The position numbers and the translations under genes were made by a program. Below are positions 9,687 through 41,120 of a DNA stretch of 64,000 nucleotides, piece by piece. Where the stretch lies: NCBI GenBank assembly GCA_003242735.2, contig QGVH02000009.1:7660-71659 (forward strand). The letters are read 5' to 3'. This DNA is from a bacterium (GTDB taxonomy: Bacteria; Gemmatimonadota; Gemmatimonadetes; Longimicrobiales; RSA9). Position 1 is the stretch's first letter, and each line of letters begins with the position of its first letter. The notes below the pieces were generated by a model. It did no database searches and was not told the origin of the DNA. It was given only the letters and a program-made list of their open reading frames with translations.

Positions 9687-9735
9687 CGTTCGCTCCTTCC
9701 AGGGGTGAGAAGTGGGTGGGTGTGCGGCCCGCGGC

Positions 9736-10158
9736 TCACGGGCGCTGCCGTGCGGCCGTCTGCTCGCGCAGACGCGCCTCGCGCTCCCGGATCCCGGCCG
9801 TGGCTGCCTCGCCGAAGTCCTCGATCTCGAACACCTGCCGGATCTCGATCTCGCCGTCGCGGAAGGGGACGCGCTTGACCCACTCGATCGCCTCTTCCAT
9901 GGACCTGGTTTGGATGAGCCAGAACCCGGCGATCAGCTCGTTCGACTCGGAGAACGGACCGTCGATGACCGTCCGGTCCTGGCCATCGAACCGCACCCGC
10001 GCGCCCCGGGAGCTGGGGTGCAGGCCCTCACCCGCGAGCAGCACGCCGGCCCGGACCAGCTCCTCGTTGTAGCGGCCCATCGCTTCGAGCTGTTCGGTGG
10101 TCGGCATGACGCCGGCCTCGGTCTCCTCGTTCGCCTTGACCAGGAGCATGAAACGCAT
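9736..10158 (-). CDS. YCII-related domain protein
   Basis: The start is ATG 10158 with a GGGAGG SD. The product begins MRFMLLVKANEETEAGVMPT and continues IDGPFSESNELIAGFWLIQTRSMEEAIEWVKRVP. The upstream 49 codons of the track ORF were discarded. Confidence 0.85.
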   Translation of the reverse strand: MRFMLLVKANEETEAGVMPTTEQLEAMGRYNEELVRAGVLLAGEGLHPSSRGARVRFDGQDRTVIDGPFSESNELIAGFWLIQTRSMEEAIEWVKRVPFRDGEIEIRQVFEIEDFGEAATAGIREREARLREQTAARQRP

Positions 10159-25365: not shown

Positions 25366-26232
25366 ATGTCGACCCGTCGCGCCCTCATGCGCACTGCCGG
25401 GCCGTACGTCGCTGCCGTGCTCGTCGTGGCGGCCGCGGCCCTGGCCATCGACACGCTGGGCGGCGGCAGCCGGCCGCTGGCTCCGAGCCGGATCACCATC
25501 ACGGCCGACGAATACGTCTTCCTCATGCCCGACACCGTTCCCGCCGGCACCGCGACGCTGGAGCTGGTCAACCGCGGCGAAGAGCTGCACCACGCCATGC
25601 TGATCCGGCTGGACGAGGACAGGACACTCGAGGAGTTGCGGGAGGAGTTGCAGGCGGCGCTCCAGGCCGGCAGTGAGCCGCGTCCGTGGGTCGTCTTCGC
25701 CGGCGGGCCGAACGCGGTGGATCCGGGTGTGAGCGCCAGCGTGACGGTCGCGCTGGAGCCCGGCCGCTATGCGCTGGTCTGCCTCATCGCTTCGCCGGAC
25801 GGCGACCTGCACGCGGCGAAGGGGATGATCCGTGAGCTGATCGTGGTCCCCGCGCACGCCGCGACGGAGACGCCCCCCGCCGATGCCGCCATCGTGCTCT
25901 CGGATTACGACTTCGAGTTCTCCACGCAGCTCGCGGCGGGCAGGCACACGCTGCACGTCCGCAACGATGCGGCGCAGTGGCACGAGATCCAGCTCTTCCG
26001 GCTCCATCCCGGCAAGACGGTCGAGGACCTCGAGCGGTGGCTCGCGGCCGGAGACGGGCCGCCGCCGGGCGCGAGCATCGGCGGCGTGGCCGCGCTCTCG
26101 CAGGGCCATGCCAACAACCTCGAGCTGAACCTGCCCCCTGGCGAGTACGCACTCGTCTGCTTCCTGCCGGACGCGCGGGACGGCAAGCCCCACTTCGTGC
26201 ACGGGATGATCGAGGGGTTCACGGTGCAGTAG
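25366..26232 (+). CDS. Secreted or anchored protein with two cupredoxin-like repeats (hypothetical)
   Basis: The start is ATG 25366 after GGGAGG, with an N-terminal TM/signal segment. There are two internal repeats, each with a His...Cys-x(9-10)-His-x4-Met pattern (HHAM...LVCLIASPDGDLHAAKGM and HEIQ...LVCFLPDARDGKPHFVHGM) like type-1 copper ligands. Confidence 0.6.
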   Translation: MSTRRALMRTAGPYVAAVLVVAAAALAIDTLGGGSRPLAPSRITITADEYVFLMPDTVPAGTATLELVNRGEELHHAMLIRLDEDRTLEELREELQAALQAGSEPRPWVVFAGGPNAVDPGVSASVTVALEPGRYALVCLIASPDGDLHAAKGMIRELIVVPAHAATETPPADAAIVLSDYDFEFSTQLAAGRHTLHVRNDAAQWHEIQLFRLHPGKTVEDLERWLAAGDGPPPGASIGGVAALSQGHANNLELNLPPGEYALVCFLPDARDGKPHFVHGMIEGFTVQ

Positions 26233-26525
26233 CCGCGGACGGGCGCGCGGCCTTCCCTCGCCGCCACCCCTCCCGGGCCGGGGCGTGGGCGGCGGCGGCA
26301 AGGGACGAGGCGCCGCCCAGTCCATGGCGCGGCCGCACGGCAAACGTCCCCGCCCGCGGTTACACCCGCAGGTCCCCCGCCCGGGGTGACGGCGCGGATG
26401 CAGGGCGGTCTCCTGGGTGGAAGGGCGCAGCGGGAGGGGCGCCTCCTCCCCCGGCCGCGGCTCAGGGGAGGAGCCGGGGTGGAAGGGGCGACCCGGCCTC
26501 GCCCGCAGCCGATGGGGCCGCGCGG

Positions 26526-26554
26526 TTGACTCGCCCGCCCACCCGCCTTACATC
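26526..26554 (+). promoter_or_regulatory. Candidate sigma70-type promoter of the metalloprotease gene
   Basis: TTGACT (26526-26531), a 17-nt spacer, then TACATC (26549-26554), about 55 nt upstream of ATG 26610. Confidence 0.3.
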
Positions 26555-26609
26555 CCTGCGCGGCTGGCGTTTGCCAGCAGGCAGTTCCCGCCCGATACGG
26601 AGTGTGTTC

Positions 26610-29267: not shown

Positions 29268-29667
29268 CCGAGGACCGCGGTCCGCCCTTGTTCGTTCGAA
29301 ACAGCGGTTCTGCGTCGGGGGCTCCCCCACGCCCGCACGAAGGGGCGCGCGTGGTCGCGTTCGCTGCCGCCGCCGGATCGGCTTACGGATCGGCGGCTCG
29401 CGGCTCACCGCGCCCGCCAGACCGCGGAGCCGCCGGGGATCGCGGCCGGCGGCGCCCTCGGGACGCGCCTCTGGCGGGCTTCGTGCCTCCCCTCTATCAT
29501 CCCCGGCCGGCGGCGGTCCACGCCCAACCTCTTCGGCCCCACCCCGGCTGGGGCCCTCGTGAGGCAAAGGGGGGCATACTCCCGGACCGGCATCGACGGA
29601 ACCCTGCTCGTCGCGGAGCGCCTCGCCGGGGGAGGCGAGTCGTGGCGTGTGCAGAGGAGAACCGGAG

Positions 29668-30438
29668 ATGCCGAAGGACAAGGACCTCAAGCGCCTGGTC
29701 CGGGCGCGCATGGCGAAGACGGGCGAGTCGTACACCACCGCCCGCGCCCGCATCATCGCGAGGAAGCACGAGCAGATCCCAGAGTCTGCAGCCGCCCAGC
29801 CCGTTGCAGCAGCGGTGAACGCCGGGGAGACACTCGCCGTGCCGGCCGCTGCGCCCGCGACCGCTGCACCGCTCTCGCTTCCCGACGATTACGAGAAGAT
29901 CGCCGGCAAGAGCGATGCGGCGGTGAAGAAAGCATCGGGTCGGACGTGGCCCGAGTGGGTCGCGCTGCTCGACGGCCACGGCGCGGCGGGCATGGAGCAC
30001 CGCGCGATCGCGAAGCTCGTGCACGAGGAGTACGGCGTGGGCGAGTGGTGGGCGCAGATGATCACCGTCGGCTACGAGCGTCTGCGCGGGCTGCGCGATG
30101 TCGGCCAGCGGCGCGGCGGCGCCTACGAGACGAGCAAGAGCGTGACGGTCGCCGCGCCGGTCGAGGCGCTGTGGCGCGTCGTCTACGACCGGGCGCAGCG
30201 CGAGCGCTGGTTGCCGAGCGTGGATCTCGAGGTCCGCACGGCCACGGAGCCCAAGTCGCTGCGCGCCCGGCTCGCCAACGGGATCAAGCTGGAAGCGTAC
30301 TTCACCGCGAAGGGGCCGGCGAAGAGCACGCTCGCGGTCCAGCTCAAGGGCCTCCCGGACAGGGAGGCGGCGCGGGCCGCAAAGGAGTTCTGGGGCGAGC
30401 GGCTGGCCACGCTGAAGGCGCTGGTCGAGCGGGAGTGA
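29668..30438 (+). CDS. DUF4287-like domain protein with an SRPBCC-like C-terminal half
   Basis: The start is ATG 29668 after GAGGAG. The central segment SGRTWPEWVALLDGHGAAGMEHRAIAKLVHEEYGVGEWWAQMITVGYERLRGLR is typical of DUF4287, recalled from memory. Confidence 0.7.
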   Translation: MPKDKDLKRLVRARMAKTGESYTTARARIIARKHEQIPESAAAQPVAAAVNAGETLAVPAAAPATAAPLSLPDDYEKIAGKSDAAVKKASGRTWPEWVALLDGHGAAGMEHRAIAKLVHEEYGVGEWWAQMITVGYERLRGLRDVGQRRGGAYETSKSVTVAAPVEALWRVVYDRAQRERWLPSVDLEVRTATEPKSLRARLANGIKLEAYFTAKGPAKSTLAVQLKGLPDREAARAAKEFWGERLATLKALVERE

Positions 30439-30569
30439 GGGCGAGCACGCTCGGAGGACGTGGATGAAGAACGGGGTGGCCCGCTGCGGCGGGGGCCACC
30501 CCGTTCGCCGTCGGCGGCGGCGACGCCGATGCATCCCACGGCAGCGCGCCTTTCGCATCGCCCGCAGGG

Positions 30570-31868
30570 TCACCCGTGCGCCGGGGCGAGCAACGCGCGC
30601 AGATACCCGGTCCACCGGGCGGCCCGCGCAGAGCTGTCGGCGGGCTGGTCACCCCCGGATTGCGGCTCGCGGTTGCGCTGGACCGCCTCCCACGCCTCTT
30701 CGCTCTCCCACGGCCGGTGAGCGCCGTGCCCCGACCACCTCGGCGCCATGCCCGCGGTCCAGAGGAGGCGGCGCAAGCGCACGGACGGACACGGCCCGGG
30801 ATTGCGCGGGTACAGCGAGGCGATGTAATGCCGCTCGAGGAGGTCCAGCACCAAACGCGGCCGCGGGGGACGGAGCCGCTCGAGGACAGGCGGGGGCACG
30901 GTCACGTGAGCGAGTGACCGCGCGAGACGGAACGTCCAGTAGCACGCGGTCGTTGCACGCGCGGCCCGAGCGGCGTCCACGACTGCATCCCAGTCCACCG
31001 GGGTGCGTCCGAGGATCTGGTGCAGGTCACGGAACGTGCGCCACGACGCATGCGCGAGGCCGTGCGACCACGCGAAGTGCACGGCCAGGTGCAGCACCTG
31101 ATGTTCAGTGGCAGGGACGAGCGCACGCCGGCCGTGGATCTCTATGGCACGCGCGCTACGCCAGATCGTCTCCGCAGGAAGATGGATGGCGTCCGTCTGA
31201 CTGAGCGCCGCGTGCAGCTCCAGCGCGATGCCCGTCCCCAGCGGGTCGAGTAGAGGCGGCAGGTGGTGGTGCGCCTCGTAGATCTCGGATGGGTACGCTT
31301 CGGCGTCGTGTACCCAGCCGGCGGCGCGCAGCGCCTCCCACGCGGCGGCGACGTGCTCCTGCCTGACCAGCAGATCCACGTCGTACATCGGCCGCGCTGC
31401 GAAGGAGCCGTACGCCGTCGCCGCGACACCCGCCCCCTTCAGCAAGACGACGTCGATGCCTCGTTCCGCGAGCGCGTCCAGCGCGCCGATGAGGAGCTGC
31501 TGGAGCCGGAGCATGCGGAACTGCGTGGCGCGCACGAGCGCGGCGAGGCGAGTGCGCGAGGTCGGCGGGATGCTGTCTTCGGGCGCGCGGTCCGTGAGCC
31601 CTGCGAGGGCACCAACGGCTTTCTCTTGCCACGCGAGTGTGAGCAACGCGTCCCAATCCAGCGACGGATCCTGCAGCGCCGCTGCGGCTCCCGCCGGATC
31701 GAGATCGGGCTGGATTGCGGCGAAGAGGACGCGCGCCTCGGGGCAGAGGAGCCGGCGGCTCACGCTGTTCAGCGCGTCAGCCACGGGACGACGGCAGGAC
31801 CGACAGGGACGGGAGAGGCAGCATGGCAGCAATCGGTCCCCGGGGGGCCGCGGCCCCCCGGGACGCAT
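30570..31868 (-). CDS. Nucleotidyltransferase-fold protein (NTP_transf_5-like), lasso-cluster tailoring candidate
   Basis: The 432-aa product contains ERGIDVVLLKGAGVAATAYGSFAARPMYDVDLLV and LHLAVHFAWSH, typical of the uncharacterised nucleotidyltransferase family seen in RiPP/lasso clusters. Its start lies 5 nt after the stop of precursor A1. Confidence 0.8.
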   Translation of the reverse strand: MRPGGPRPPGDRLLPCCLSRPCRSCRRPVADALNSVSRRLLCPEARVLFAAIQPDLDPAGAAAALQDPSLDWDALLTLAWQEKAVGALAGLTDRAPEDSIPPTSRTRLAALVRATQFRMLRLQQLLIGALDALAERGIDVVLLKGAGVAATAYGSFAARPMYDVDLLVRQEHVAAAWEALRAAGWVHDAEAYPSEIYEAHHHLPPLLDPLGTGIALELHAALSQTDAIHLPAETIWRSARAIEIHGRRALVPATEHQVLHLAVHFAWSHGLAHASWRTFRDLHQILGRTPVDWDAVVDAARAARATTACYWTFRLARSLAHVTVPPPVLERLRPPRPRLVLDLLERHYIASLYPRNPGPCPSVRLRRLLWTAGMAPRWSGHGAHRPWESEEAWEAVQRNREPQSGGDQPADSSARAARWTGYLRALLAPAHG

Positions 31869-31873
31869 CAGCG

Positions 31874-32014
31874 TTACGAGCGATCCTTGTCCTTGCAGAA
31901 GAGCTCGTCGCCGTCGCCGATGCCGAAGATGCCGCCGTCGCAGTCCGGGTTCGTCCCGAGCCGTGTCAGTTCACGCACCGACCCGAACCGCTCGAGCTTG
32001 GGCTTGATGTACAT
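31874..32014 (-). CDS. Lasso peptide precursor A1 (46 aa): MYIKPKLERFGSVRELTRLGTNPDCDGGIFGIGDGDELFCKDKDRS
   Basis: These are the last 46 codons of the spurious track ORF 31874..33268. ATG 32014 is preceded by AGGAGGGAGT. The leader KPxLE...ELT-x resembles known lasso leaders. It lies immediately downstream of the cyclase and is a paralog of A2. Confidence 0.8.
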   Translation of the reverse strand: MYIKPKLERFGSVRELTRLGTNPDCDGGIFGIGDGDELFCKDKDRS

Positions 32015-32034
32015 ACTCCCTCCTTTGGGATGAT

Positions 32035-32082
32035 GGGTTGCGGGCGACTGGCCCGCGCAGCCTGTCGCACCCGCGACAGGAT
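32035..32082 (-). repeat. Copy 1 of the 48-nt double-hairpin element upstream of a precursor gene
   Basis: It matches 38487-38534 at 47 of 48 positions. The minus-strand RNA reads AUCCUGUCGCGGGUGCGACAGGCUGCGCGGGCCAGUCGCCCGCAACCC. Hairpin 1 is CCUGUCGC/GCGACAGG and hairpin 2 is GCGGGC/GCCCGC. Confidence 0.75.
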
Positions 32083-32085
32083 CGG

Positions 32086-34053
32086 TCAGATCGCAACGGT
32101 TGCCGCCGCAACGACCGTAGCGTTCGTCGGTTTCTCCAGACTTCCGGACGCGTTGCCTCGCCGGGCACGCAGCCAGAGCTCCGTCTGGAGCGTGTAGTAG
32201 AGGCCGACCCGGGTGGCGGCGTCTCGGCGGCGCGGGTACTCCGCGCACGCGCGGCGCAGCTCTTCGGCTCGAACGATGCCCAGCTCCTCCAGCACGAGCG
32301 GCTCGCGCATCGTCCGTTCGAGCAGACCGGGGAACACCTCCACCATCCAGCGGTGCGAGTAACCACCGGTGATCCCGGTCCGGTACGGCCGCGGGGCGAG
32401 AACCTCCTCCGGCAGCAGACCGTGCATGGCCCGCCGGAGCAGACGCTTGGTCTCCTTGCCGGACGATCGCTCCCACCAGGGGCGCGACACGGCGAATTCG
32501 ATAACACGCCGGTCTGACAACGGCGAGCGGACCTCGACGCCCTCGCGCAGCGCGAACCCCGTGATCAGGGCGAACGCGCGGGAGACGAAGAGCGAGGTGA
32601 AATGCCAGTCGATCTCCCGGCCCGCGTGCGTGGCGGGGATCTCCCGCGTGAGGAACTCGCGGTCGCGCGCCTCCAGCTCGTGGCGCGCGACGAACTCCGG
32701 GTTCAGCCAGGACGGGATCGGGCGCTCGAGATAATGCTTCAGCCGCCGTCCGCCCCGGAGCCACGCGGCGAGGCGGAGCGCTGGCTCCGGCAGGTTGGGC
32801 TGGATCACCCACTTGAAAAACGGCCGGAACCCGCCGCGCGGCCGGGCCCGCCACTCGCGCGCCACCGTCCACCAGCGCCCTGCCCGGAACAGGTCGGCCA
32901 GGAAGACGTCCGAGTTCTGGAAGAGCTGGTCGCCGCCGTTGCCGTCCATGGCGACGCGTGCGCCCAGGGCCCGGGCCCCGGCTGCGAGCGCGCCGTTCCA
33001 CCGCTCGTAGAGGTGCGCGTACGGCTCGTCCCGGGCCGCCGCCCGCTCCTCCTCGCGCTCCAAGAACGGGATGTCCGCGATGTCGATCCAGTGGACGGCC
33101 CCCCCCCACCGGTCCGCGATCGCCTGGATCCACTCGTCCTCGCGCCCCGGGTCGCCTTCGGGGTAGCTGATCGAGACCGGCCGCACGGCCGCGTCCAGGC
33201 CGTCCCGGCGGATCACGTGGCACGCCGCGCCGAACACCGCGGTCGAATCCCACCCGCCGCTCATCCACACGGCGTTCACCGCGCCCGGCTGCAGCCGCTC
33301 CCGCACCGCCGTCGCCAGCAGCTCACGCAGGTGCACGGCCGCATCCTCGTGCGAGAGCCGGCTGGGCTCAGCGTTCACCGGCACCTCCCAGTACCGGACC
33401 GGGCCGTGGAGACGGCCGTCCGACCAGCTCATGCGGTGCGCGTTGGGGAGCACGCGCACCGCCGTGTAGCAGGTCTCCGGGCCCGCGGAGAAGTGCAGGC
33501 CGGCGATCGTCGCCCCGAGGATCGGCAGGTTCAGGTCGTCCGGGCAGCGCGGGTGCGCGACGACCCCGCCGATCGTGGACGCCACGACCAGCTCGCCGCC
33601 GAGCTCCGCGTAGTGGAGCGGACGTTTCCCGCCGAGATCCCGCGCGCACAGGACCCGCCGCCTCGCCCGGTCCCAGAGGATGAAGGCGAAGTCACCCTCG
33701 ATGTGCGACACGCAGTCGTCGCCCCAGGCGCGATAAGCGGCGAGGATCAGGTGCGCCGGCGAGTCGCCGGCCGGGCTCACGCCACGCTCGCGCAACGCCC
33801 GCCGCAGGTCTTCGCGGTAATAGACGGACGCGTCCGCCGCGACCACCACAGCGCCGTCCTCGACGACCAGCACCGGGCCGCTGAACGTCGGGTCGAGCTC
33901 CCATTCGTGGCGCGCGACCGCGAGCACGGCATCGCCGCCCCGCCAGATCTGCAGACGATCCCCGCCCCGGGCCGACATGCGGCCCAGCATCGCGCGGATC
34001 TGCGCATCCGTCACAGACGGCGCGTCACCGAACACCCCGACAATTGCGCTCAC
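32086..34053 (-). CDS. Lasso peptide cyclase (asparagine synthetase B-like, McjC-type)
   Basis: The 655-aa product starts at GTG. It has an N-terminal Ntn-like domain without the catalytic Cys (MSAIVGVFG), the PP-loop WMSGGWDSTAVF and a C-terminal Asn-synthase fold. A precursor gene lies 71 nt downstream. Confidence 0.92.
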   Translation of the reverse strand: MSAIVGVFGDAPSVTDAQIRAMLGRMSARGGDRLQIWRGGDAVLAVARHEWELDPTFSGPVLVVEDGAVVVAADASVYYREDLRRALRERGVSPAGDSPAHLILAAYRAWGDDCVSHIEGDFAFILWDRARRRVLCARDLGGKRPLHYAELGGELVVASTIGGVVAHPRCPDDLNLPILGATIAGLHFSAGPETCYTAVRVLPNAHRMSWSDGRLHGPVRYWEVPVNAEPSRLSHEDAAVHLRELLATAVRERLQPGAVNAVWMSGGWDSTAVFGAACHVIRRDGLDAAVRPVSISYPEGDPGREDEWIQAIADRWGGAVHWIDIADIPFLEREEERAAARDEPYAHLYERWNGALAAGARALGARVAMDGNGGDQLFQNSDVFLADLFRAGRWWTVAREWRARPRGGFRPFFKWVIQPNLPEPALRLAAWLRGGRRLKHYLERPIPSWLNPEFVARHELEARDREFLTREIPATHAGREIDWHFTSLFVSRAFALITGFALREGVEVRSPLSDRRVIEFAVSRPWWERSSGKETKRLLRRAMHGLLPEEVLAPRPYRTGITGGYSHRWMVEVFPGLLERTMREPLVLEELGIVRAEELRRACAEYPRRRDAATRVGLYYTLQTELWLRARRGNASGSLEKPTNATVVAAATVAI

Positions 34054-34266
34054 AGCACGATACCCGAATTGCGCGGTCCCAACGCGCTACCACGAAGTGG
34101 AGTTGGCCGACGCTCGCGGCGACGGATCACATTCGATACCCCGGGCCGATGTGGCCGCGCGCGCCAGCGGCCGGTTTGCAAGGGGAGTGCCATTCGGGGT
34201 GGCCACTCATCTCGTAATATGACAACATGTTACGGTTTTTTGGCGCGACGTGTCGGCGGTTCGGCC

Positions 34267-34315
34267 TGTTGCAGGCGATCATCATCTTGGCGCCCAGAAA
34301 AGTCACCATTTTGTC
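34267..34315 (-). repeat. Copy 1 of a conserved upstream non-coding block (candidate promoter/operator of the cyclase unit)
   Basis: It matches 39057-39106 at 38 of 50 positions with one 1-nt gap. Shared blocks are TGTTGCAGGCGA, CATCA, TGGCGCC, GTCACC and TTTTGTC. It lies in the 299-nt gap between the permease stop and the cyclase start. Confidence 0.5.
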
Positions 34316-34352
34316 GCAGTGAGATCGCCGCACGGCAAGCGGGTCCGTCCCA

Positions 34353-35153
34353 TCAATAATGTGAGAGAGACCCGACGCGCCGCGCGTACGCGAGCGCGAC
34401 CCGCAACGCGATCATCCCGACGGACAGCAAGCCGACCACGAAAAGGGCGAGGATCGCGAGGTCCGGCAGCACCGCCCGGAGCGGCTCACCTTCCAGCAGG
34501 GTCCGGCGCAGCGCCCGAAGGCCGTAGGTCAGGGGAATCATCCCGGAGACAGACTCGAGCCAGGACGGAATGACGTGCGTCGGGTAGTAGACGCCTCCGA
34601 GGAGCGCGGAGAGGGTCGTGACGGCCTGCGGCAGTGGGCCCGTCGTGCGGAAAGCGATGACCAGCGCCGCCGCCATCATCCCGAACGGAACGTAGGCGAG
34701 GACAATGAGCAGCACGATGAGGAGGGCGAGCCCGACCCGCGACCAGAGGATCGTCGCGCCCAAGAGCCATGCGCCGACGAGCATGGTGGCGGCGCGCAAA
34801 CCCGCCCATAGCAGGCTGAAGCCGATCAGCCCGGCCAGGACCTCGGACAGGCGGGTTCGGGTGCCGAGCAGGGCCTCGAGCACGCCGGTATTGATGCCGG
34901 AGCCGATCTCGCCCGCGAGCGCGTTGACGCTCACGGGGAGGAGCAGGAACGTCATCGTGCCGACGGCGAGGAATGCGAAGTATTGATCGCCCTCCGCAGC
35001 GATCTTGTCGGCCATGATTGGCTGGAGCGCGTTGGCGACGAAGAACAGCGGCACGACGGTCGCGAGCAACGAGAGGGTGGAGAAGACCATGCGGACGCGA
35101 TAGCTCCGTGCCGCGAGCCAGCGCGCGCGGATCAATGCGACGGCGCCTCGCAT
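34353..35153 (-). CDS. ABC-2 type transporter permease (lasso export/immunity candidate)
   Basis: ATG 35153 overlaps the ATPase stop (ATGA). The 266-aa product has about six TM segments. The upstream 54 Arg-rich codons of the track ORF were discarded. Confidence 0.85.
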   Translation of the reverse strand: MRGAVALIRARWLAARSYRVRMVFSTLSLLATVVPLFFVANALQPIMADKIAAEGDQYFAFLAVGTMTFLLLPVSVNALAGEIGSGINTGVLEALLGTRTRLSEVLAGLIGFSLLWAGLRAATMLVGAWLLGATILWSRVGLALLIVLLIVLAYVPFGMMAAALVIAFRTTGPLPQAVTTLSALLGGVYYPTHVIPSWLESVSGMIPLTYGLRALRRTLLEGEPLRAVLPDLAILALFVVGLLSVGMIALRVALAYARRVGSLSHY

Positions 35154-36235
35154 CAGTCCTCCGCCTTCAGGCGGACCATGCGCTCGAGCAGGTCCGCGAG
35201 GGTGACCGGTCTGTGCTCGACCCCGCAGACGGCGACTCCGTGCCGGACCAGATGGCCCACCATGTCGGCGACGCCGTCGGGGCCGCCGGGAATGGGAGCC
35301 TCGACGACGGCCCAACGGGCGGTGCCGCGACCGTCGTCGAGCGTCGCGCCAATGTGTCCGGCGCGGGCGAGTGCGCGGAGCGCGTCGTCGACGTGGTCGG
35401 CGCGGACCGTCAAGCGGTACATGTCGTCCCGGACCTCGCCCATCAGTTCGTCGAGCCGGCCGACGGCGAGCAACCGCCCGCGATCGAGGACCGCGACGCG
35501 CTCACAGAGCTCGAACGCCTCCTCCGCATTGTGGGTCGCCAGGAGGATCGTGCACTGCTGGCGGCCGACGATCTCGTCGCGGAGGAAACGGCGGAACTGG
35601 CGCGCGGCGACGGGGTCGAGGCTCCGGGTCGGCTCGTCGAGCAGGAGCACCTTCGGCCGCGCCAGCAGCGCTCGCGCGATGAGGAGCCGCTGCTTCATGC
35701 CGGAGGAGAAGGTGCCGACCAACTTGCTGCCGGTGTGCTGGAGCCCGACCGCCTCGAGCAGTTCCCCGACGCGCGTCGACACGTCCCGGCGAGGAACGCG
35801 GTAGAGGGCCGCGAAGAGCTCGAGGTTCTCGCGCGCCGTGAGTCGCCAATCGAGGCTGCGCTCGTCCGGCACCACGAGCGCGAGCGCGCTCCGCACGGCG
35901 TGCGGCTCGCGAAGGATGTCGTGGCCTGCGATGCGCGCCGTGCCGGCGTCGGGGAGCAGCAGTGTGCTCAGCATCCGGAATAGGGTGGTCTTGCCTGCGC
36001 CGTTCGCGCCGAGCAGGCCGAAGAACTCGTTGCGGCGGATGTCGAAGCTGACGCCGTCGACGGCGGTGATGCGCCGCGCCCGGCGCCAGGGAGCGCGCAG
36101 GATCTCACCCCAGGTGCGCCGCTCGGGAAACGCCTTGGTGAGCCCCTGGACGGAGACGATGGGCTCGCCGTCGGCCGGGCGGGCGGCGGACGCACTGGCG
36201 TGTTGCGACGATGCAGTGAGCGGCGCGGTGGTCAT
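35153..36235 (-). CDS. ABC transporter ATP-binding protein (lasso export/immunity candidate)
   Basis: ATG 36235 overlaps the kinase stop (ATGA). It has Walker A GANGAGKTT, signature FSSGMKQR and Walker B LLLDEPTRSLD. It is part of the 751-aa track ORF 35153..37408, whose 5' part is spurious. Confidence 0.9.
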   Translation of the reverse strand: MTTAPLTASSQHASASAARPADGEPIVSVQGLTKAFPERRTWGEILRAPWRRARRITAVDGVSFDIRRNEFFGLLGANGAGKTTLFRMLSTLLLPDAGTARIAGHDILREPHAVRSALALVVPDERSLDWRLTARENLELFAALYRVPRRDVSTRVGELLEAVGLQHTGSKLVGTFSSGMKQRLLIARALLARPKVLLLDEPTRSLDPVAARQFRRFLRDEIVGRQQCTILLATHNAEEAFELCERVAVLDRGRLLAVGRLDELMGEVRDDMYRLTVRADHVDDALRALARAGHIGATLDDGRGTARWAVVEAPIPGGPDGVADMVGHLVRHGVAVCGVEHRPVTLADLLERMVRLKAED

Positions 36236-37203
36236 GGCGTCGTGCCGGCGAGAGACTGCGCGTGCCAGTCGCGGATGGTGGCGACGGCCTCCTCGAGCCG
36301 ATCGAAGTCGCGCACGATTTCCAGCCGGTAGACGGGGACGCAGGCTGCGAGCGCCGTCGCGTGCCGGAACAGGTTCGGCGCCTCGGGGCCCGTGAGCAGC
36401 GGCGCCAGCTTGGCGTGGCCGAGGATCACCAGGGCCGCCTCCATGCCGGAGAGCCGCGTGCGGCGGACGGCTGCGCCGTCGGGTGCCTCCCGGACCGGGG
36501 CGAGCAGGTACAGCGCCGCGAGCGGGTGCGTGCAGTGAGAAACGCGCTCCTCGGGCAGGGCGCGGAACACGGTCTTCGGCCCCACGGCAGCGGGCGCCGC
36601 CTGGCCGATGCCGACGACCCTGGCCGAGTCGGCCCAGAGACGGGCGGCGTGGAGGCCGGGGCCTGCGAGCGGCGGCGAGCCGGCAAGGACCGGCATGGTG
36701 TCGTCGGTGAGGAGCTTCCCGCCGGACCTCACCAGCGCGAGCGCCAACGTTGACTTCCCGTGCCGCTTCGGCGCGACGAACCCGACGGCCTGCCCGTCCA
36801 GCACCACCGCGCTCCCATGGAGACAGACGGTGCCGGCGGCGTACAGCGCGGTGGCGAGCACGCGGCTGGTGATGTCGGCCCGCGCGTCGGCGGCCGAGAC
36901 GTCCTCTGCATGGGTCCACGTGATGGTCCGGCCATCTGCGGCGATGTCGAAGCAGCCGGTATCGTCGAAGACCAGGCGGAACCCGTGGCTCGTGCGGTAA
37001 AGACGGGTCTCGACGCCCGCCGTCACCGTGTCGCTCCCGAGCGGGACGCATTCCGCCTCCGGCGGCTCGCCGACCCGCGAGCGGAGGACCCACGTCACGT
37101 CCTCCGCGGGATCCGCCGCCTCGAGCTCCGGGATCGCCAGATCGCTCTCGAGGACGCCGCCGAAGAGCCGATAGCGATGCCTGATGGAGGGCTCGTTCGT
37201 CAT
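36232..37203 (-). CDS. HPr kinase/phosphorylase-related kinase (lasso precursor Ser kinase candidate)
   Basis: The 323-aa product has P-loop-like VAPKRHGKSTLALAL and LHGSAVVLDGQAVGF, typical of HprK-related kinases in kinase-type lasso clusters. Its start codon directly abuts the B2 stop codon (37203/37204, no overlap). Confidence 0.8.
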   Translation of the reverse strand: MTNEPSIRHRYRLFGGVLESDLAIPELEAADPAEDVTWVLRSRVGEPPEAECVPLGSDTVTAGVETRLYRTSHGFRLVFDDTGCFDIAADGRTITWTHAEDVSAADARADITSRVLATALYAAGTVCLHGSAVVLDGQAVGFVAPKRHGKSTLALALVRSGGKLLTDDTMPVLAGSPPLAGPGLHAARLWADSARVVGIGQAAPAAVGPKTVFRALPEERVSHCTHPLAALYLLAPVREAPDGAAVRRTRLSGMEAALVILGHAKLAPLLTGPEAPNLFRHATALAACVPVYRLEIVRDFDRLEEAVATIRDWHAQSLAGTTP

Positions 37204-37662
37204 TCAGAACTCGACCAGCCGGAGATCCGGCAACCGGGTGAACGTCTGCACGTGCTGCCGCGAGTCGCCGATCACGACACCGTCCAGCTCGATCCACGCG
37301 TGCGCCTCGAACTCGCCGTTGCGCCTGCGCACGCCGACGTTGATCCTGCTCGCCGTGATCCCCCGCCGTCGCAGCATCCGCTGGATCGCCATCGATCGGA
37401 CCAGGCATTGCGGCCGGAAGACACCGTACCTCGCTGCCCGTGTCACCGCCCAGGCGACCGCCTCCGCAATGCGTCGATCCTCACGGCTCGGTGCTCGTCG
37501 CTCGGGCTCGGGCTCTGCCCTCCCGAGGAGCTCACCGACGGGGCGCCGCCAGCGTTCGTACTGGCACGCGAGCAGCACCACCTGGGCCTCTGCGAGCAAC
37601 CGCACCTCTCGCAGAGTGAGCCCGCGGAGTCGGCGGAGCCACACGGCCGCGGTCCGGGTCAT
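37204..37662 (-). CDS. Lasso peptide B2 leader peptidase (transglutaminase-like cysteine protease)
   Basis: The 152-aa product has a Cys...His...Asp context (RPQCLVRSMAIQRML, EFEAHAWIELDGVVIGD), typical of the McjB C-terminal domain family. Confidence 0.85.
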   Translation of the reverse strand: MTRTAAVWLRRLRGLTLREVRLLAEAQVVLLACQYERWRRPVGELLGRAEPEPERRAPSREDRRIAEAVAWAVTRAARYGVFRPQCLVRSMAIQRMLRRRGITASRINVGVRRRNGEFEAHAWIELDGVVIGDSRQHVQTFTRLPDLRLVEF

Positions 37663-37666
37663 GGGG

Positions 37667-37942
37667 TCACCGTTCGTCGGCCGGGATCACCAGGCCGTGA
37701 CGCGCCAGGTCATCGAGGAGCTCGACCACGTCGCTCCGGAGTTGCTCGGCGGGCACATCCGGATAGCGCCGCCCGAGCTCCGCGCACACCTGGTCGAGGT
37801 CCTGGCACGTGGGGGGCAGGAGTTGCCACACCTCGACACCGACGGGGTTGAGACCGAAGTAGACTTCCTGTTCCATGTGCAGGAGGATCGCGCCCTCCGG
37901 CACGGGCTGGAACAGCACGGCAGGGTGAGGTTTCGGCAGCAT
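37667..37942 (-). CDS. Lasso peptide B1 protein (PqqD-like RiPP recognition element)
   Basis: I chose the start at ATG 37942. The product begins MLPKPHPAVLFQPVPEGAILLHMEQEVYFGLNPVGVEVWQLL, a typical PqqD-family pattern. The stop lies 4 nt before the B2 start. No obvious SD is present, so the start is uncertain. Confidence 0.78.
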   Translation of the reverse strand: MLPKPHPAVLFQPVPEGAILLHMEQEVYFGLNPVGVEVWQLLPPTCQDLDQVCAELGRRYPDVPAEQLRSDVVELLDDLARHGLVIPADER

Positions 37943-38282
37943 TCGTTCAGAATCGAAACGACACTCTGGTTGAAAGCGGGTCCATGACGCCGGTGGCCGG
38001 ACGGGCAAGTCAGGGGCCGATGGGGGCCATGGCGGCCAAATCGTGAATCCGTAATGACCTGGGAGACGTCCGGCGCCGACACGGGCGCCTCGAAGCTGTT
38101 GCGTTTGCGCAACCCTGTCAGGGAGGCGGCGCGGCGGCGGTGCGACACTGCCGGCCGGGAGGGCGGCGAGCAGGCCACGGCCTCGAGGCAGCGGAGCCCG
38201 CGCCTCCCTCGTCCACCGCGTCGACCGCGGGGGACGAGGGGAGGGGGCGGAGCGTCCGGTCAGGATCGGCGCAGGGAAGGGC

Positions 38283-38304
38283 CCGGGGGGCCACGGCCCC
38301 CCGG
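38283..38304 (-). terminator. GC hairpin 10 nt after the A2 stop (attenuator or mRNA-stabiliser candidate)
   Basis: The minus-strand RNA is CCGGGGGG-CCGUGG-CCCCCCGG, an 8-bp all-GC stem with a 6-nt loop and no U tract. A gap of about 340 nt follows before B1. Confidence 0.4.
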
Positions 38305-38314
38305 CGGGTTGGTG

Positions 38315-38464
38315 CTACGAGCGGTTTCCGGTGTTGGTGCACCCTACCCAATGGCCGCGGGCGGCGTCGACGCCGAAGATGCCGCCGTCGCAATCGGTGC
38401 TGAGACCGTATTGGGTCAGCTCGCGCACCGAGCCGAACCGCTCCAGTCTCGGTTTGACATACAT
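38315..38464 (-). CDS. Lasso peptide precursor A2 (49 aa): MYVKPRLERFGSVRELTQYGLSTDCDGGIFGVDAARGHWVGCTNTGNRS
   Basis: These are the last 49 codons of the spurious track ORF 38315..38983. ATG 38464 is preceded by GAGAGGAG. It matches A1 at 24 of the first 31 residues, with many synonymous codon differences. Confidence 0.8.
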   Translation of the reverse strand: MYVKPRLERFGSVRELTQYGLSTDCDGGIFGVDAARGHWVGCTNTGNRS

Positions 38465-38486
38465 TCGATCACTCCTCTCGGGAGAC

Positions 38487-38534
38487 GGGTTGCGGGCGAC
38501 TGGCCCGCGCAGCCTGTCGCACCCACGACAGGAT
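38487..38534 (-). repeat. Copy 2 of the 48-nt double-hairpin element upstream of a precursor gene
   Basis: It matches 32035-32082 at 47 of 48 positions. The single difference (plus-strand A at 38524 versus G at 32072) turns a C-G pair of hairpin 1 into a U-G wobble on the minus-strand RNA only. Confidence 0.75.
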
Positions 38535-39056
38535 AGCACAGATGGCACCGGTAGCGCCACCCTTCGATTCGAACGGCACCTCGCCCCTCCCGCGCGGGCG
38601 AGCCGCGCGTCGGCATCGCGAGCATGCCCCGGGAACGCCTCGACCGCCCCGTGTCGGGCGGCGGGGCGCTCCCCCGAACAGGACGAGCCGGACCACCGCC
38701 CCGGAAGACGGCCGGAAAGCGCTGTGCGGTTCCGCCTCCTCCGATCAACGGGGCGCCGTGCCCGGCGGACAGCGCCCCAGCTGCGCGGGTGTGGAAGTCG
38801 GCCGCTGCGTGTGCCCAACCGAAACCGCCGACGACGGCGCGCACCGGCGCTTTCCCGCACGGATCCGGTCTGAGGGTACCACCACAGCGGGCGCTGGCCG
38901 CCGCACCCGGCGGCGCAGGAGAGACGGCCACAGCGGCTGCCGCAGCCGTTCGCTGCGCGGGGGGCCCGCAAACACGATACCAAACAGGGGGATGCCGTCT
39001 ATCTCGTGTGGCTACGAGAGTTTCGAGACGGCACGCCGTGCGGTGCGGCGCAGTCT

Positions 39057-39106
39057 TGTTGCAGGCGAGCATCAGACCTGGCGCCTGCATTGGTCACCGT
39101 TTTGTC
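39057..39106 (-). repeat. Copy 2 of the conserved upstream non-coding block
   Basis: See 34267-34315. A further shared ATCTCGT word lies 56-58 nt away in both copies (34209-34215 and 39001-39007). Confidence 0.5.
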
Positions 39107-39202
39107 CCACGGCGGCGGGCCACCGGCTCGTCGTACGATACGAGAAGGCGCCGACGAACCATGCATGGCGAAGCGTGACGCGGCCGCGCGCCGCGCGCCT
39201 GC

Positions 39203-39661
39203 TCACCCCTCCTGCTCCGCCGCCGTCGCGATCTTCGGCTCGACGGCGACGTCAATGGCGATCCCCTGGCGTACGCTCTGGGTGACGGTGCAGAAGTCCT
39301 CGAAGAGGCCGATGCAGCGCGTGAGGCGCGCGGCGTCGGCCTCGTCCAGCTCCGGGGCGAGCCGGACCGCGATGCGGCTGACGCGGAGGCGGCCCGCGTC
39401 GTTGCGTTCGATGGTGCCGCTCACCTCGGTCTCCATGCCCGTCACGGGCACATGCGCCTTCTGGAGGCAGAAGAGCAGACTCGCGGCGAGGCAGCTCCCC
39501 ACCGCGGCGCCGAGCAGCGCGGTCGGGTTCGGCCCCGCGCCCCCGCCCAGCGGCGGCGGCTCGTCGACGGTCAGTTCTCCGGTGGTCCCGGAATCGAAGC
39601 GGACCGCGAACTCGTAGCCGTCGCGCCGCGTCAGCGTGACTCTGAAGGTGTTGTCTTTCAT
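39203..39661 (-). CDS. OsmC/Ohr family peroxiredoxin-like protein
   Basis: The start is ATG 39661 after GGGGAG. The sequence GGGAGPNPTALLGAAVGSCLAASLLFCLQKAHV...CIGLFEDFCTVTQSV has the typical OsmC pattern with conserved Cys. Confidence 0.85.
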   Translation of the reverse strand: MKDNTFRVTLTRRDGYEFAVRFDSGTTGELTVDEPPPLGGGAGPNPTALLGAAVGSCLAASLLFCLQKAHVPVTGMETEVSGTIERNDAGRLRVSRIAVRLAPELDEADAARLTRCIGLFEDFCTVTQSVRQGIAIDVAVEPKIATAAEQEG

Positions 39662-40038
39662 TGCGCTCCCCTCGTCATCGAGGTCGTGATCCGGCCGGAG
39701 TCTCGGCCGCCGGCGTGCCACTCCCGACCGTGGCCCGTGGGCCATCGACCCCTCCGCCGGCCGCACGGAAACATGCGTCGTCCATGCGAGGCGGTCTATC
39801 GGGGAATGCCGGACGGCCCGTGGGGCGGAGTCGGCGGCGGGCCGCAGGGCCGGGCTTGCCCGCGGGCGGCCGCACAGCGGTGTGGATGCCCGGGCGGCCC
39901 GCCCCGCCTTTGCCGCCCGTGCGAGGTGGGGAGCGGGCGCATCCGCGCGGCGCAGCGGATGCTCGAGGGGCCCGCCGCGCCGGGACCTCGGGCGCCGCGC
40001 GGGGTACACGTGGATGCCCCCCTGCGAAAGGAAGGCGC

Positions 40039-40289: not shown

Positions 40290-41120
40290 ATGCTCTGCGC
40301 TTGCCCCGGGGCGGCGACGGGTGGCGGCGCGCGCGGCGACGCCGGGTTGGCTGCGCACGTGAACGCCGCGCGAGGCGCTGCGGGCCCGGCGCCGATCGCG
40401 GCGAACGGCGGCAGGACCGCGGTGGAGCCCGCCTTGCCGCGGGCGGCGGTCGGGTGGAGCGGCGGCAAGGACTCGGCGCTGGCGCTGGATGCAGTGCTGC
40501 GCGAGGGGCGGCTCGCCGTGCACGCGCTGGTCACGACCGTGACGGACGCGTACGACCGCATCAGCATGCACGGCGTGCGGCGCGCGCTGCTGCGTGAGCA
40601 GTGCGCCGCGCTCGGGCTGCCGCTGGTCGAGGTCGAGATCCCGCCGGGCTGCACCAACGAGGTCTACGAGGCGCGGACGGCGGAGGCGTTCGAGGCGTTG
40701 AAGCGCCAGGGCGTCGAGCGTCTCGTGTTCGGCGACCTGTTCCTCGAGGACGTGCGTCAGTACCGCGAGAACCTCGCCGCCCGCCTCGATCTCGCGTGCG
40801 AGTTCCCGCTGTGGGGCCGTGACACGGCGGAGCTCGCTCGCGCGTTCATTGAGGCGGGGTTCCGCGCCATCGTCGTGTGCGTGGACCCCGGGCAGCTCGA
40901 CCCGTCGTTCTGCGGCCGCGCGTACGATGCTTCGTTCCTCGCCGATCTCCCCGCCACGTGCGATCCGTGTGGCGAGCGCGGCGAGTTCCACACGTTCGTC
41001 TACGACGGCCCGATCTTCGGCCGGCCGGTGGCGGTAGAGAGGGGCCAGGTGGTGGAGCGGGAGGGGTTCTGGTTCGCGGATCTGCTGCCGGCGAACGGGT
41101 CGGCGGGCGCCACGGGCTGA
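40290..41120 (+). CDS. Adenine-nucleotide alpha-hydrolase (Dph6/MJ0570-related ATP pyrophosphatase-like)
   Basis: It has the PP-loop context VGWSGGKDSALAL and C-terminal CDPCGERGEFHTFVYDGPIF. The start is uncertain: ATG 40290, GTG 40272 or GTG 40422. Confidence 0.72.
   Translation: MLCACPGAATGGGARGDAGLAAHVNAARGAAGPAPIAANGGRTAVEPALPRAAVGWSGGKDSALALDAVLREGRLAVHALVTTVTDAYDRISMHGVRRALLREQCAALGLPLVEVEIPPGCTNEVYEARTAEAFEALKRQGVERLVFGDLFLEDVRQYRENLAARLDLACEFPLWGRDTAELARAFIEAGFRAIVVCVDPGQLDPSFCGRAYDASFLADLPATCDPCGERGEFHTFVYDGPIFGRPVAVERGQVVEREGFWFADLLPANGSAGATG

Follow-up and report, generated by a model that had tools for sequence, protein, structure and literature searches.

A minus-strand block at 30570-39106 of the window (the whole 64-kb stretch of DNA analysed) carries nine open reading frames, which translate at their given coordinates with no internal stops; all features described below lie on that strand, save one palindrome to which no strand is assigned. 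Judged from its sequence, the block is in all likelihood a split-B lasso RiPP cluster of the kinase and nucleotidyltransferase type, with two precursors and an arrangement in two units. The first-pass annotation had proposed such a cluster, with an HprK-like kinase, an NTP_transf_5 enzyme and two precursors, and profile, fold, motif and comparative evidence now bears this out. Its reading frames and junctions also stood, including the overlaps and a 299-nt gap between the permease and cyclase genes; the exception is the junction between precursor A1 and the nucleotidyltransferase. B1 and B2 are separated by 4 nt, B2 abuts the kinase gene (TGAATG), the kinase and ATPase genes overlap by 4 nt (ATGA), and the ATPase and permease genes overlap by 1 nt (TGATG).

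B1 (37667..37942) encodes a PqqD-like RiPP recognition element that matches PF05402 at 7.7e-18 (65 bits, against a cutoff of 23.4) and NF033530 at 2.7e-11. B2 (37204..37662) encodes a transglutaminase-like leader peptidase, with matches to PF13471 Transglut_core3 (3.5e-25) and to the lasso B2 model NF033537 (82 bits, cutoff 33); its catalytic Cys/His residues, Cys86 and His121, are kept in at least 95% of 43 homologues. The Asn-synthetase-like lasso cyclase (32086..34053) matches PF00733 Asn_synthase at 1.5e-28 (101 bits, cutoff 21) and GATase_7 at 5e-22. Its best NCBIfam match is the lasso cyclase model NF033535 (5.9e-69), at 233 bits, which lies below the curated cutoff of 525. The cyclase PP-loop, S265-G-G-x-D269-S270 (SGGxDS), is kept in at least 95% of 53 homologues.

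Precursor A2 (38315..38464) has 49 residues, with a predicted leader MYVKPRLERFGSVRELTQ and core YGLSTDCDGGIFGVDAARGHWVGCTNTGNRS; precursor A1 (31874..32014) has 46, with leader MYIKPKLERFGSVRELTR and core LGTNPDCDGGIFGIGDGDELFCKDKDRS. Both score above the cutoff of 19 for NF033521 lasso_leader_L3 (25.5 bits for A2, 23.4 bits for A1), so this leader family has already been recognised by curators; the model covers the leader only and is silent on the core, the tailoring steps and the RNA context. The earlier expectation that automated ORF calling would miss the precursors did not hold, for A2 is called in JGI contigs and A1 in JGI and ENA contigs. Each leader comprises 18 residues, with YxxPxL at −17 to −12 and Thr at −2. 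Each core contains Asp8, Cys7, one tail Cys and a C-terminal Arg-Ser, the final Ser being Ser46 in A1 and Ser49 in A2. The core Cys positions, 7 and 22 in A1 and 7 and 24 in A2, are compatible with a single ring-tail disulfide. An alignment of 61 distinct family precursors has T(−2) in 59 and shows no variation at Y(−17), P(−14), G(−8) or R(−5). The core Asp/Glu stands at position 8 in 46 of them and at position 9 in 11. In lasso leaders YxxPxL always spans −17 to −12 (PMC10368454). We place the cut after residue 18 because of this YxxPxL/T(−2) register and because of aligned subfamilies of the form LTQ/G...D8, where the slash marks the cut (PMC10368454). A cut one residue later, which would give Gly1, a 7-residue ring and Thr at −3, was rejected on the same register.

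By sequence and modelled fold, the product of 36232..37203 is HprK/PEPCK-like even though it misses the Pfam threshold, and we annotate it as a peptide kinase on its family profile, predicted fold and invariant motif. Among the profile searches that the first-pass annotation had suggested, those for B1, B2, the cyclase and the nucleotidyltransferase all gave matches, whereas the single kinase sequence had no Pfam match at threshold (Hpr_kinase_C, E = 0.027) and reached TIGR04352 at 1.2e-5, under the curated threshold. The family profile matches the HPr kinase structure 1ko7 at 3.8e-6, and an AlphaFold2 model (pLDDT 94.5) has PEPCK and HprK/P as its top Foldseek matches. H129, K150, S151, D167 and D168 are invariant in the family alignment. 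Of these, H129, K150, D167 and D168 match the His-Lys-Asp-Asp motif reported to be essential in lasso kinases (PMC9266682, PMC10368454). The Walker A sequence, APKRHGKS, has an Ala in place of a Gly that is important for function in BsfK.

The nucleotidyltransferase gene required a revised start. It had been placed at ATG 31868, which sits within a perfect GC hairpin that is found again after the A2 stop codon. Homologues begin approximately 12 residues ahead of an LLxPEAR motif in the N-terminal alignment, and public gene calls give a product of 404 residues; therefore, the start is most likely GTG 31784. On this sequence evidence the gene most likely spans 30570..31784 and follows A1 after 89 nt rather than 5 nt, which puts the original junction off by 84 nt. 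The 404-residue protein matches PF14907 (NTP_transf_5) at 7.1e-44 (151 bits), and K116-G-A and D135-x-D137 are kept in at least 95% of 36 homologues. The exporter is encoded by a DrrA-like ABC transporter ATPase gene (35153..36235; PF00005 ABC_tran 1.3e-31, TIGR01188 7.6e-73) and a DrrB-like ABC-2 permease gene (34353..35153; PF01061 ABC2_membrane 1.7e-16).

The searches turned up 76 loci with related clusters, in 76 species-level genomes that nearly all belong to Gemmatimonadota; the nearest relatives of the window cluster belong to Longimicrobiales MAGs. Two features that had been singled out as unusual turn out to be shared. L001 and L023, the closest relatives, have the gene order of the window, and at a third locus, L006, a precursor likewise lies ahead of B1. 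Likewise, the split exporter of an ATPase and an ABC-2 permease is the family norm, present at 57 of the 76 loci. Thus, by sequence comparison the cluster is an ordinary representative of a family widespread in Gemmatimonadota, and not an oddity.

The proposed division into two units draws on repeated noncoding DNA. A 52-nt motif occurs as Box 1 (39055..39106), which heads the A2 unit and is a candidate promoter/operator, and as Box 2 (34265..34315), which heads the cyclase unit from inside the 299-nt gap. The pattern GACAAAAYGGTGAC..GGCGCCARG has two matches in 64 kb against none expected in shuffles, and TCGCCTGCAACARG is present in both boxes. The boxes differ by a 1-nt indel, so their conservation is not coding. 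The end coordinate of the block, 39106, coincides with Box 1. A palindrome, GTTGCG-N4-CGCAAC (38098..38113), lies 156 nt upstream of B1 and is a candidate operator/promoter of the B1 operon; it has one match against 0.03 expected in the window and is kept at the same place in L001. A scan for terminators gave hits no more numerous than in shuffles.

The block could instead be a single operon without an internal promoter, the gap and boxes being leftovers of rearrangement or duplication; we regard this as the less probable arrangement, although it has considerable weight. In most relatives all genes are contiguous and run in one direction, only ~30 nt separate permease and cyclase in L006, and a sigma-70 promoter scan of the window found nothing. 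Further, neither exact pattern search nor blastn found the 52-nt box in the 76 related loci, and a metagenome scan for it returned only two unrelated contigs of ~60% GC. However, the boxes are ~80% conserved while the surrounding DNA has diverged to ~60% or been deleted, the corresponding gap in L001 retains a related GATGATG..GCAACA motif, and the 299-nt gap of this 72%-GC genome holds an AT-rich inverted repeat. We therefore retain the two-unit arrangement.

Both precursor genes are enclosed by predicted RNA structures. A two-hairpin 5′ element with a Shine-Dalgarno sequence precedes A2 (38467..38538; covariance model 47.7 bits, E = 1.3e-6; fold −24.9 kcal/mol) and A1 (32015..32086; 49.3 bits, E = 6e-7; fold −27 kcal/mol, z = −2.6). 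Over 48 nt the two copies are identical at 47, the lone change turning a C-G pair into U-G. A GC-rich perfect hairpin stands right after each stop codon, at 38282..38304 for A2 and at 31840..31862 for A1 (−27.1 kcal/mol, z = −3.0), where it falls inside the originally proposed N-terminus of the nucleotidyltransferase. Most loci have a 3′ hairpin, with a median z of −4.1. We took the consensus pairs of the 5′ element from single-sequence folds and then used a covariance model to realign the sequences. In that alignment, 82.7% of cells are paired, against 27-52% in slid controls, and the covariation score is 0.341 versus 0.154, a level reached by 0 of 500 shuffles. RNAalifold had returned no structure from a MAFFT alignment, which put the hairpins of the 5′ regions out of register. 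Of 57 covariance-model hits, 52 immediately precede a leader ORF, and tblastn had missed 7 of these 52 ORFs. Rfam covariance models gave no match at E ≤ 1 over 29000-40000. A promoter hidden in the two hairpins, with TACTTY as its −10, was considered and dropped, as no consistent −35 lay at a workable spacing.

Across the phylum, then, precursor genes sit in a cassette with a covarying two-hairpin element upstream and a GC-rich hairpin downstream. The most likely role of the flanking hairpins would be to stabilise the short precursor mRNA or to attenuate read-through; that this would yield more precursor than enzyme is speculative. An alternative that we consider doubtful is that the two upstream hairpins are terminators of the preceding gene, or DNA-level palindromes bound by protein, and not functional RNA. 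They do usually lie just past the cyclase stop codon, both are GC-rich stem-loops, and the second is conserved in sequence within the subfamily of the window (GCTGYGCGGGCCAG), as expected of a protein site. On the other hand, the hairpins also accompany precursors with no preceding cyclase, both at A2 in the window and in L006 (9722-9788), and the two upstream hairpins have no U-tract. A terminator amid the common B1-B2-C-A-K order would also cut off the downstream genes. Finally, changes in the hairpins are compensatory, the single A1/A2 difference keeps a pair (C-G to U-G), and G-U pairs outnumber A-C pairs, if only by 54 to 26.

These observations lead us to put forward, as a tentative proposal that may well prove wrong, that the precursor cassette of Gemmatimonadota (5′ element, Shine-Dalgarno, ORF and 3′ GC hairpin) represents a previously undescribed family of cis-regulatory RNA dedicated to RiPP precursors. 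Such a cassette would govern how much precursor is made relative to enzyme, by way of segmental mRNA stability or translational control, and would be duplicated as one piece. No lasso peptide before these products would have had both a class III ring-tail disulfide and a C-terminal phospho(glyco)serine.

The window itself records one duplication. The segment 38152..39109 is a decayed collinear duplicate of 34318-31706, which spans box, gap, cyclase, A1 and the 5′ end of the nucleotidyltransferase gene. Collinear HSPs pair 39109-38756 with 34318-33962, 38804-38660 with 32912-32772, 38645-38545 with 32344-32245, and 38555-38152 with 32103-31706. The HSPs upstream of 38555 score 69.7, 48.3 and 42.5 bits, where the highest score among 200 Markov simulations was 46.8. 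At the protein level, no significant remnant of the cyclase was found upstream of A2; only the DNA-level HSPs were significant against the Markov null. Apart from A2 and its flanking elements, nothing in the duplicate is intact. By sequence comparison, the second precursor gene traces back to an old internal duplication.

This history raises the question of whether A2 is itself a relic in a decaying copy of the cyclase unit, with A1 the source of a single product. We consider this improbable. The reduction of the surrounding cyclase and nucleotidyltransferase copies to fragments is in its favor, as are the single precursors of L001 and L023 and the Tyr with which the A2 core starts, unique among the 61 family precursors. 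However, the A2 ORF is intact, and comparison of its leader with that of A1 gives pN/pS = 0.10 at pS = 0.73, which indicates purifying selection with 73% divergence at synonymous sites. A2 also retains its Shine-Dalgarno, its nearly identical 5′ element and its 3′ hairpin, together with Asp8, Cys7, the tail Cys and the C-terminal Arg-Ser. Moreover, L006 independently keeps three precursors, and identical A2 copies recur in many metagenome contigs. We therefore treat both precursors as probably functional.

By analogy with characterised relatives, maturation would proceed as follows. B1 would bind the leader of the precursor, by analogy with BsfB1. The kinase would phosphorylate the C-terminal Ser of the linear precursor, as do PadeK, ThcoK, SyanK and PsmK, with BsfK as a further relative, and the nucleotidyltransferase, on the model of PsmN, would add a hexose or a nucleotidyl group to the Ser phosphate. 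B2 would cut after residue 18, and the cyclase would close an 8-residue ring between Asp8 and the amine of the first core residue, which is Leu in A1 and Tyr in A2. Cys7 would then form a class III-like ring-tail disulfide with Cys22 in A1 or Cys24 in A2. The DrrAB-like ABC-2 pump would export the product and may also give immunity. With ring and disulfide, the A2 product has a predicted monoisotopic M of 3165.378, with +79.966 per phosphate.

It is useful to compare this scheme with known systems. The pseudomycoidin cluster of Bacillus pseudomycoides, psmCAKB1B2ND, likewise has a split B1/B2, a cyclase, an HprK-like kinase, a Ser-ended precursor and an enzyme of the uncharacterised-nucleotidyltransferase family with an essential DxD, although the likeness of our enzyme to PsmN is drawn from the family name (PMC6993621). 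D134 and D136 of PsmN are essential, its chemistry may be glycosyl or nucleotidyl transfer, and the product carries phosphate and hexose on its C-terminal Ser (PMC6993621). The psm cluster differs in its Firmicute host, in a single fused ABC exporter, PsmD, in place of the ATPase and ABC-2 permease, and in having one precursor, an Ala1-Glu9 ring, no Cys and another gene order (PMC6993621). Clusters of the paeninodin, ThcoK and SyanK types also use an HprK-related kinase with His-Lys-Asp-Asp, which places a phosphate on the C-terminal Ser of the precursor while it is linear, and they occur in Firmicutes and Proteobacteria (PMC9266682, PMC8498205). The paeninodin cluster, as described, differs from ours in having no nucleotidyltransferase, and the precursors of these systems are unrelated in sequence to A1 and A2, with no disulfide predicted.

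Kinase-containing clusters had been described in the first-pass annotation as mostly from Firmicutes; they are known there but also in Proteobacteria, including a Bradymonas with both K and N genes (PMC8498205, PMC10368454). That bsf cluster of Bradymonas sediminis (A, B1, B2, C, D, K and N) shares with ours a diderm host, a kinase and a nucleotidyltransferase, and has YxxPxL at −17 to −12 and a ring from residue 1 to Asp8, as predicted here; its B1 accelerates phosphorylation (PMC10368454). It differs in that BsfK phosphorylates Ser3, in a precursor that ends in Asp and has Ile at −2, and in its single D-type transporter, and BsfK is <21% identical to other lasso kinases (PMC10368454). The class III peptides BI-32169 and 9401-LP1 have one disulfide, from a Cys in the ring to one in the tail, as predicted here for Cys7, but neither as described carries a C-terminal phosphate or sugar (PMC6784204, PMC9266682).

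By these analogies, the last Ser of each lasso peptide probably carries a phosphate and a sugar. That the kinase and nucleotidyltransferase act on another residue, or in self-protection rather than maturation, is the least probable of the alternatives: the BsfK precedent at Ser3 (PMC10368454), the possible nonterminal targets Thr3 in A1 and Ser4 and Thr5 in A2, and the 13 of 61 family precursors without a terminal Ser speak for it, but the other 48 end in Ser, usually as Arg-Ser, behind an otherwise hypervariable tail, and apart from BsfK every characterised lasso kinase has the C-terminal Ser as its target (PMC9266682, PMC8498205).

Gemmatimonadota are an abundant, little-studied soil phylum whose members are rarely cultured. 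To our knowledge, no lasso peptide has been characterised from this phylum, and all the characterised kinase and nucleotidyltransferase lasso pathways that we know of come from Firmicutes and a few Proteobacteria. The cluster described here does not overturn current understanding; it would extend these pathways to Gemmatimonadota. It offers two concrete core peptides with predicted masses, ring and disulfide, and a family with at least 61 related members that could be mined or engineered. The cluster also provides a clear case of how a second precursor originates, through duplication of a sub-operon followed by decay of all but the precursor and its regulatory flanks. Finally, the precursor-linked RNA motif is a useful handle for mining, having located precursors that similarity searches missed, and could be a new regulatory RNA.

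The nine minus-strand reading frames that the first-pass annotation had grouped into a lasso peptide cluster (precursor A2, 38315-38464; the PqqD/RRE protein B1; the transglutaminase-like protease B2; a kinase; an ABC ATPase and ABC-2 permease; a cyclase; precursor A1, 31874-32014; and a nucleotidyltransferase) all translate cleanly, in a window of ~72% GC throughout. Their junctions are as it described: B1 and B2 lie 4 nt apart, the kinase follows B2 with no nucleotide between, the kinase overlaps the ATPase at ATGA and the ATPase overlaps the permease by a single base (TGATG), and the cyclase comes after a gap of 299 nt behind the permease. Profile searches bore out the assignment of every gene but the kinase, which was sub-threshold as a single sequence. 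B1 best matched PqqD (7.7e-18). B2 matched Transglut_core3 (3.5e-25) and the lasso B2 model NF033537 (82 bits against a cutoff of 33), and the cyclase matched Asn_synthase (1.5e-28), GATase_7 (5e-22) and the lasso cyclase model NF033535 (5.9e-69, below its cutoff). The ATPase matched ABC_tran (1.3e-31) and a DrrA-like model (7.6e-73), the permease ABC2_membrane (1.7e-16), and the nucleotidyltransferase NTP_transf_5 (7.1e-44). Precursors of the A1/A2 type are already recognised by a curated NCBI leader model (NF033521, lasso_leader_L3; A2 25.5 bits, A1 23.4 bits, cutoff 19). At least 95% of homologues conserve B2 Cys86 and His121, the cyclase PP-loop S265-G-G-x-D-S270, and K116-G-A...D135-x-D137 of the nucleotidyltransferase; in PsmN, D134 and D136 are essential (PMC6993621).

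One boundary had to be moved. The proposed nucleotidyltransferase start, ATG 31868, falls inside a perfect GC hairpin (31840-31862) that has a copy after the A2 stop codon. Homologues start 5-12 residues ahead of an LLxPEAR motif, the N-terminus MAEALNS of a Longimicrobiales relative (L002) aligns with VADALNS of the window, and identical public sequence is called as a 404-aa protein starting 89 nt past A1. Thus, the start is most likely GTG 31784. Because no clear Shine-Dalgarno sequence precedes that codon, 31763 is a possible alternative.

Public calls on two contigs with the window's own sequence (L081 and L082, 155-2429; about 32086-34360 here) break up the cyclase: an ORF of 426 aa is called antisense, and of the cyclase itself only a C-terminal piece of 325 aa. 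The calls for the two short precursors are correct. The permease-cyclase gap holds an inverted repeat at 34212-34235, CGTAACATGTTGTCATATTACG, with an A-run behind it on the gene strand. The repeat is AT-rich, in a 72% GC genome, and may act as promoter or operator for the cyclase unit. Four flanking genes have no obvious link to the cluster: a plus-strand DUF4953 Met-zincin with DUF5117 and DUF5118 domains (25977-29267), a plus-strand ORF with no Pfam match and a faint DUF4287 in public calls (29559-30467), a minus-strand OsmC-like protein (39203 to about 39640) and a plus-strand Diphthami_syn_2-like protein (about 40440-41120). L002 shows synteny across the Met-zincin flank.

We place the kinase in the HprK family because of family-profile matches, predicted fold and an invariant His-Lys-Asp-Asp motif. 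Searched alone, it reached only 1.2e-5 with TIGR04352 (HprK_rel_A) and E = 0.027 with Hpr_kinase_C, both sub-threshold. A profile of 28 homologues matches the solved HPr kinases 1ko7, 1jb1, 2qmh and 3tqf (3.8e-6 to 2.4e-5). The best PDB matches of the kinase's AlphaFold2 model (pLDDT 94.5, pTM 0.91) are PEP carboxykinases and HprK/P, all with probability 1.0 and with TM-scores, normalised to the HprK catalytic domain, of 0.5-0.6. H129, K150, S151, D167 and D168 are invariant across the family; they give the His-Lys-Asp-Asp motif, which mutagenesis of PadeK/ThcoK and BsfK has shown to be essential (PMC9266682, PMC10368454). Many of the homologues P0027-P0094 carry the precomputed Pfam accession PF27840; this family may already be defined in a newer Pfam release.

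Ninety-four relatives of the kinase were detected, and all the named ones are from Gemmatimonadota. A scan of species-representative genomes yielded 76 loci, nearly all in MAGs of Gemmatimonadaceae, Gemmatimonadales or Longimicrobiales; one locus carries a proteobacterium label and two a Sumerlaeota label. The closest loci are from Longimicrobiales (79% identity), and proteins identical to those of the window are encoded on metagenome contigs from JGI and ENA, the longest 229 kb. By tblastn with the nine window proteins, most loci carry the same gene set, the nucleotidyltransferase in 46 of 76. The commonest complete order, B1-B2-C-A-kinase-ABC-permease-NTase, occurs in 20 loci, besides truncated versions. 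The first-pass annotation had called the layout unusual and pointed out the split exporter. The window order, B1-B2-K-ABC-perm-[gap]-C-A-N, recurs in two loci (L001 and L023), one of the three precursors of another (L006) lies upstream of B1, and the ABC/ABC-2 pair is found in 57/76 loci; therefore both are family traits. In the close relative L002 (Longimicrobiales MAG DASVDH010000018.1, 13140-14950), the cyclase is lost save for a 72-nt relic, and a precursor with a Trp-rich core, LAYWWWWWCEDEEGGPPDNDPQHDRS, follows the nucleotidyltransferase.

Sixty-one distinct precursor sequences share a highly constrained leader, [M/V]-Y-x-x-P-x-[L/V]-E-R-F-G-[S/T]-x-R-[E/D]-L-T-x, with no variation at Y(-17), P(-14), G(-8) and R(-5) and with T(-2) in 59. 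Since lasso leaders always hold YxxPxL at -17 to -12 (PMC10368454; see also PMC6784204), this register sets the leader cut after residue 18. The resulting cores are LGTNPDCDGGIFGIGDGDELFCKDKDRS (A1) and YGLSTDCDGGIFGVDAARGHWVGCTNTGNRS (A2). Asp or Glu stands at core position 8 in 46 precursors and at position 9 in 11; Asp8 is the family-wide acceptor position, and Asp6 lacks conservation. The usual residue 1 is Ile, Val, Leu, Ala or Gly, Tyr being confined to A2, and the C-terminus is Ser in 48/61, mostly as Arg-Ser. Cores contain two Cys in 32 precursors and three in 15. The cores of A1 and A2 have a class III-like arrangement, with Cys7 inside the predicted ring and a second Cys in the tail. 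Precursors of two other loci (L062, 559-732; L063, 2080-2253) have Val or Ile at -2 rather than Thr, lack Asp or Glu at core positions 7-10, and are similar to a rare Ile/Val(-2) class of Bradymonadales and Acidobacteriaceae (PMC10368454).

The second precursor arose by duplication. The stretch 38555-38152 aligns with 32103-31706 at 71% identity, spanning the last cyclase codons, intergenic region, precursor, hairpin and ~130 nt of the nucleotidyltransferase 5' end. Weaker collinear matches extend further upstream: 39109-38756 with 34318-33962 (a 52-nt box, the entire 299-nt gap and the cyclase start), 38804-38660 with 32912-32772, and 38645-38545 with 32344-32245. These score 69.7, 48.3 and 42.5 bits, against a mean of 29 and a maximum of 46.8 bits in 200 first-order Markov simulations. 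From these collinear matches, the entire head of the cyclase unit was copied upstream of B1, with later decay of the cyclase and nucleotidyltransferase copies. The box (39106-39055 and 34315-34265; two matches, zero expected), the element 5' of the precursor, A2 and the 3' hairpin are intact in the duplicate. No further copy of the box was found in the 76 related loci or a metagenome scan. The duplication is old, since synonymous sites of the A1 and A2 leaders are 73% diverged. Leader pN/pS is nevertheless 0.10, and the 5' elements are identical at 47/48 nt, differing only by a C-G pair changed to U-G, which argues that A2 is functional and its flanking elements are under selection. The ancestral region directly upstream of B1 keeps a palindrome, GTTGCG-N4-CGCAAC (38098-38113), common to L001. 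Elsewhere, L006 (8712-15024) has three precursor cassettes and L010 (2779-3122) a second precursor truncated straight after the leader (MYERPRVRRFGTFRELTQAGT, then stop); therefore, cassette duplication and decay recur in the family.

Most precursors in the phylum are preceded by two successive stem-loops (stems of 6-9 and 6-7 bp, loops of ~5 nt, a short spacer between), with a Shine-Dalgarno sequence 20-25 nt beyond the second. A covariance model built from 32 precursor-upstream regions gave 57 matches in 1.16 Mb. Fifty-two lie directly upstream of a leader-type ORF, including seven ORFs overlooked by tblastn (L022, L024, L031, L041, L043, L046 and L054), and the only strong matches in the 64-kb window are the A1 and A2 sites. 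Pairing and covariation support a conserved structure. With the alignment fitted to the model, pairing holds in 82.7% of cells, compared with 27-52% when the partners are shifted along; double changes occur in 12 of 13 pairs, and the covariation score is 0.341 versus 0.154 in shuffles, 0/500 of which reach it. An unfitted MAFFT alignment points the same way (77.4% paired; 0.283 versus 0.137). G-U pairs exceed A-C pairs (54 versus 26), which mildly favours structure in the sense-strand RNA. The element has no Rfam match. Past the precursor stop, most loci form a strong GC hairpin (median z = -4.1; z < -2 in 76%).

In other RiPP operons, stem-loops beside precursor genes have been proposed to provide precursor in excess over the enzymes. 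The main rival reading is that these hairpins are a terminator or operator. We prefer that they would shield a processed or attenuated precursor mRNA segment, keeping precursor in excess over the enzymes. Inside the kinase 3' end, a 34-nt plus-strand stretch (36239-36272) is identical to the sense sequence of the 5' element at 28/34 positions (GTCGTG..AGACTGCGCGTGCCAGTCGC); not reported by the covariance model, it may be a relic in antisense or a coincidence. A weak match to the model (38927-38995, plus strand; 25.1 bits, E = 0.053) lies on the opposite strand of the decayed duplicate, with no leader-type ORF after it. Precursors of L051 (about 9700-9778), L057 (about 5340-5415) and L072 (about 9700-9780) lack the two hairpins; directly upstream is an AT-rich TTGACA...GATTTT resembling a sigma-70 promoter.

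The sequence itself shows the gene set, its motifs, the features of the precursors, the duplication and the conserved structures; the pathway steps we infer from characterised relatives. B1 would bind the YxxPxL leader and may also assist the kinase, which would phosphorylate the linear precursor at its C-terminal Ser (PMC9266682, PMC8498205, PMC10368454). The NTP_transf_5 enzyme would decorate the phosphate in the manner of PsmN, which attaches hexose(s) (PMC6993621). B2 would remove the leader, the cyclase would form the isopeptide bond from residue 1 to Asp8, Cys7 would bond with the tail Cys, and the DrrAB-like pump would export the product. With ring and disulfide closed, the predicted monoisotopic masses are 2923.275 for the A1 product and 3165.378 for that of A2; one phosphate would raise them to 3003.242 and 3245.344, and phosphate together with hexose to 3165.294 and 3407.397.

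Lasso clusters with a kinase, or with a kinase and a nucleotidyltransferase, are already well documented: from Firmicutes, with paeninodin and pseudomycoidin, and from Proteobacteria, with SyanK of Sphingobium and the bsf cluster of Bradymonas. In the literature found, those of Gemmatimonadota appear only as antiSMASH counts (PMC11316326). The phylum is new for this cluster type. Also new are the predicted co-occurrence of a disulfide between ring and tail with a phospho(glyco)serine at the C-terminus, the bulky first core residues, the duplication history of A2 and the precursor-linked RNA motif.
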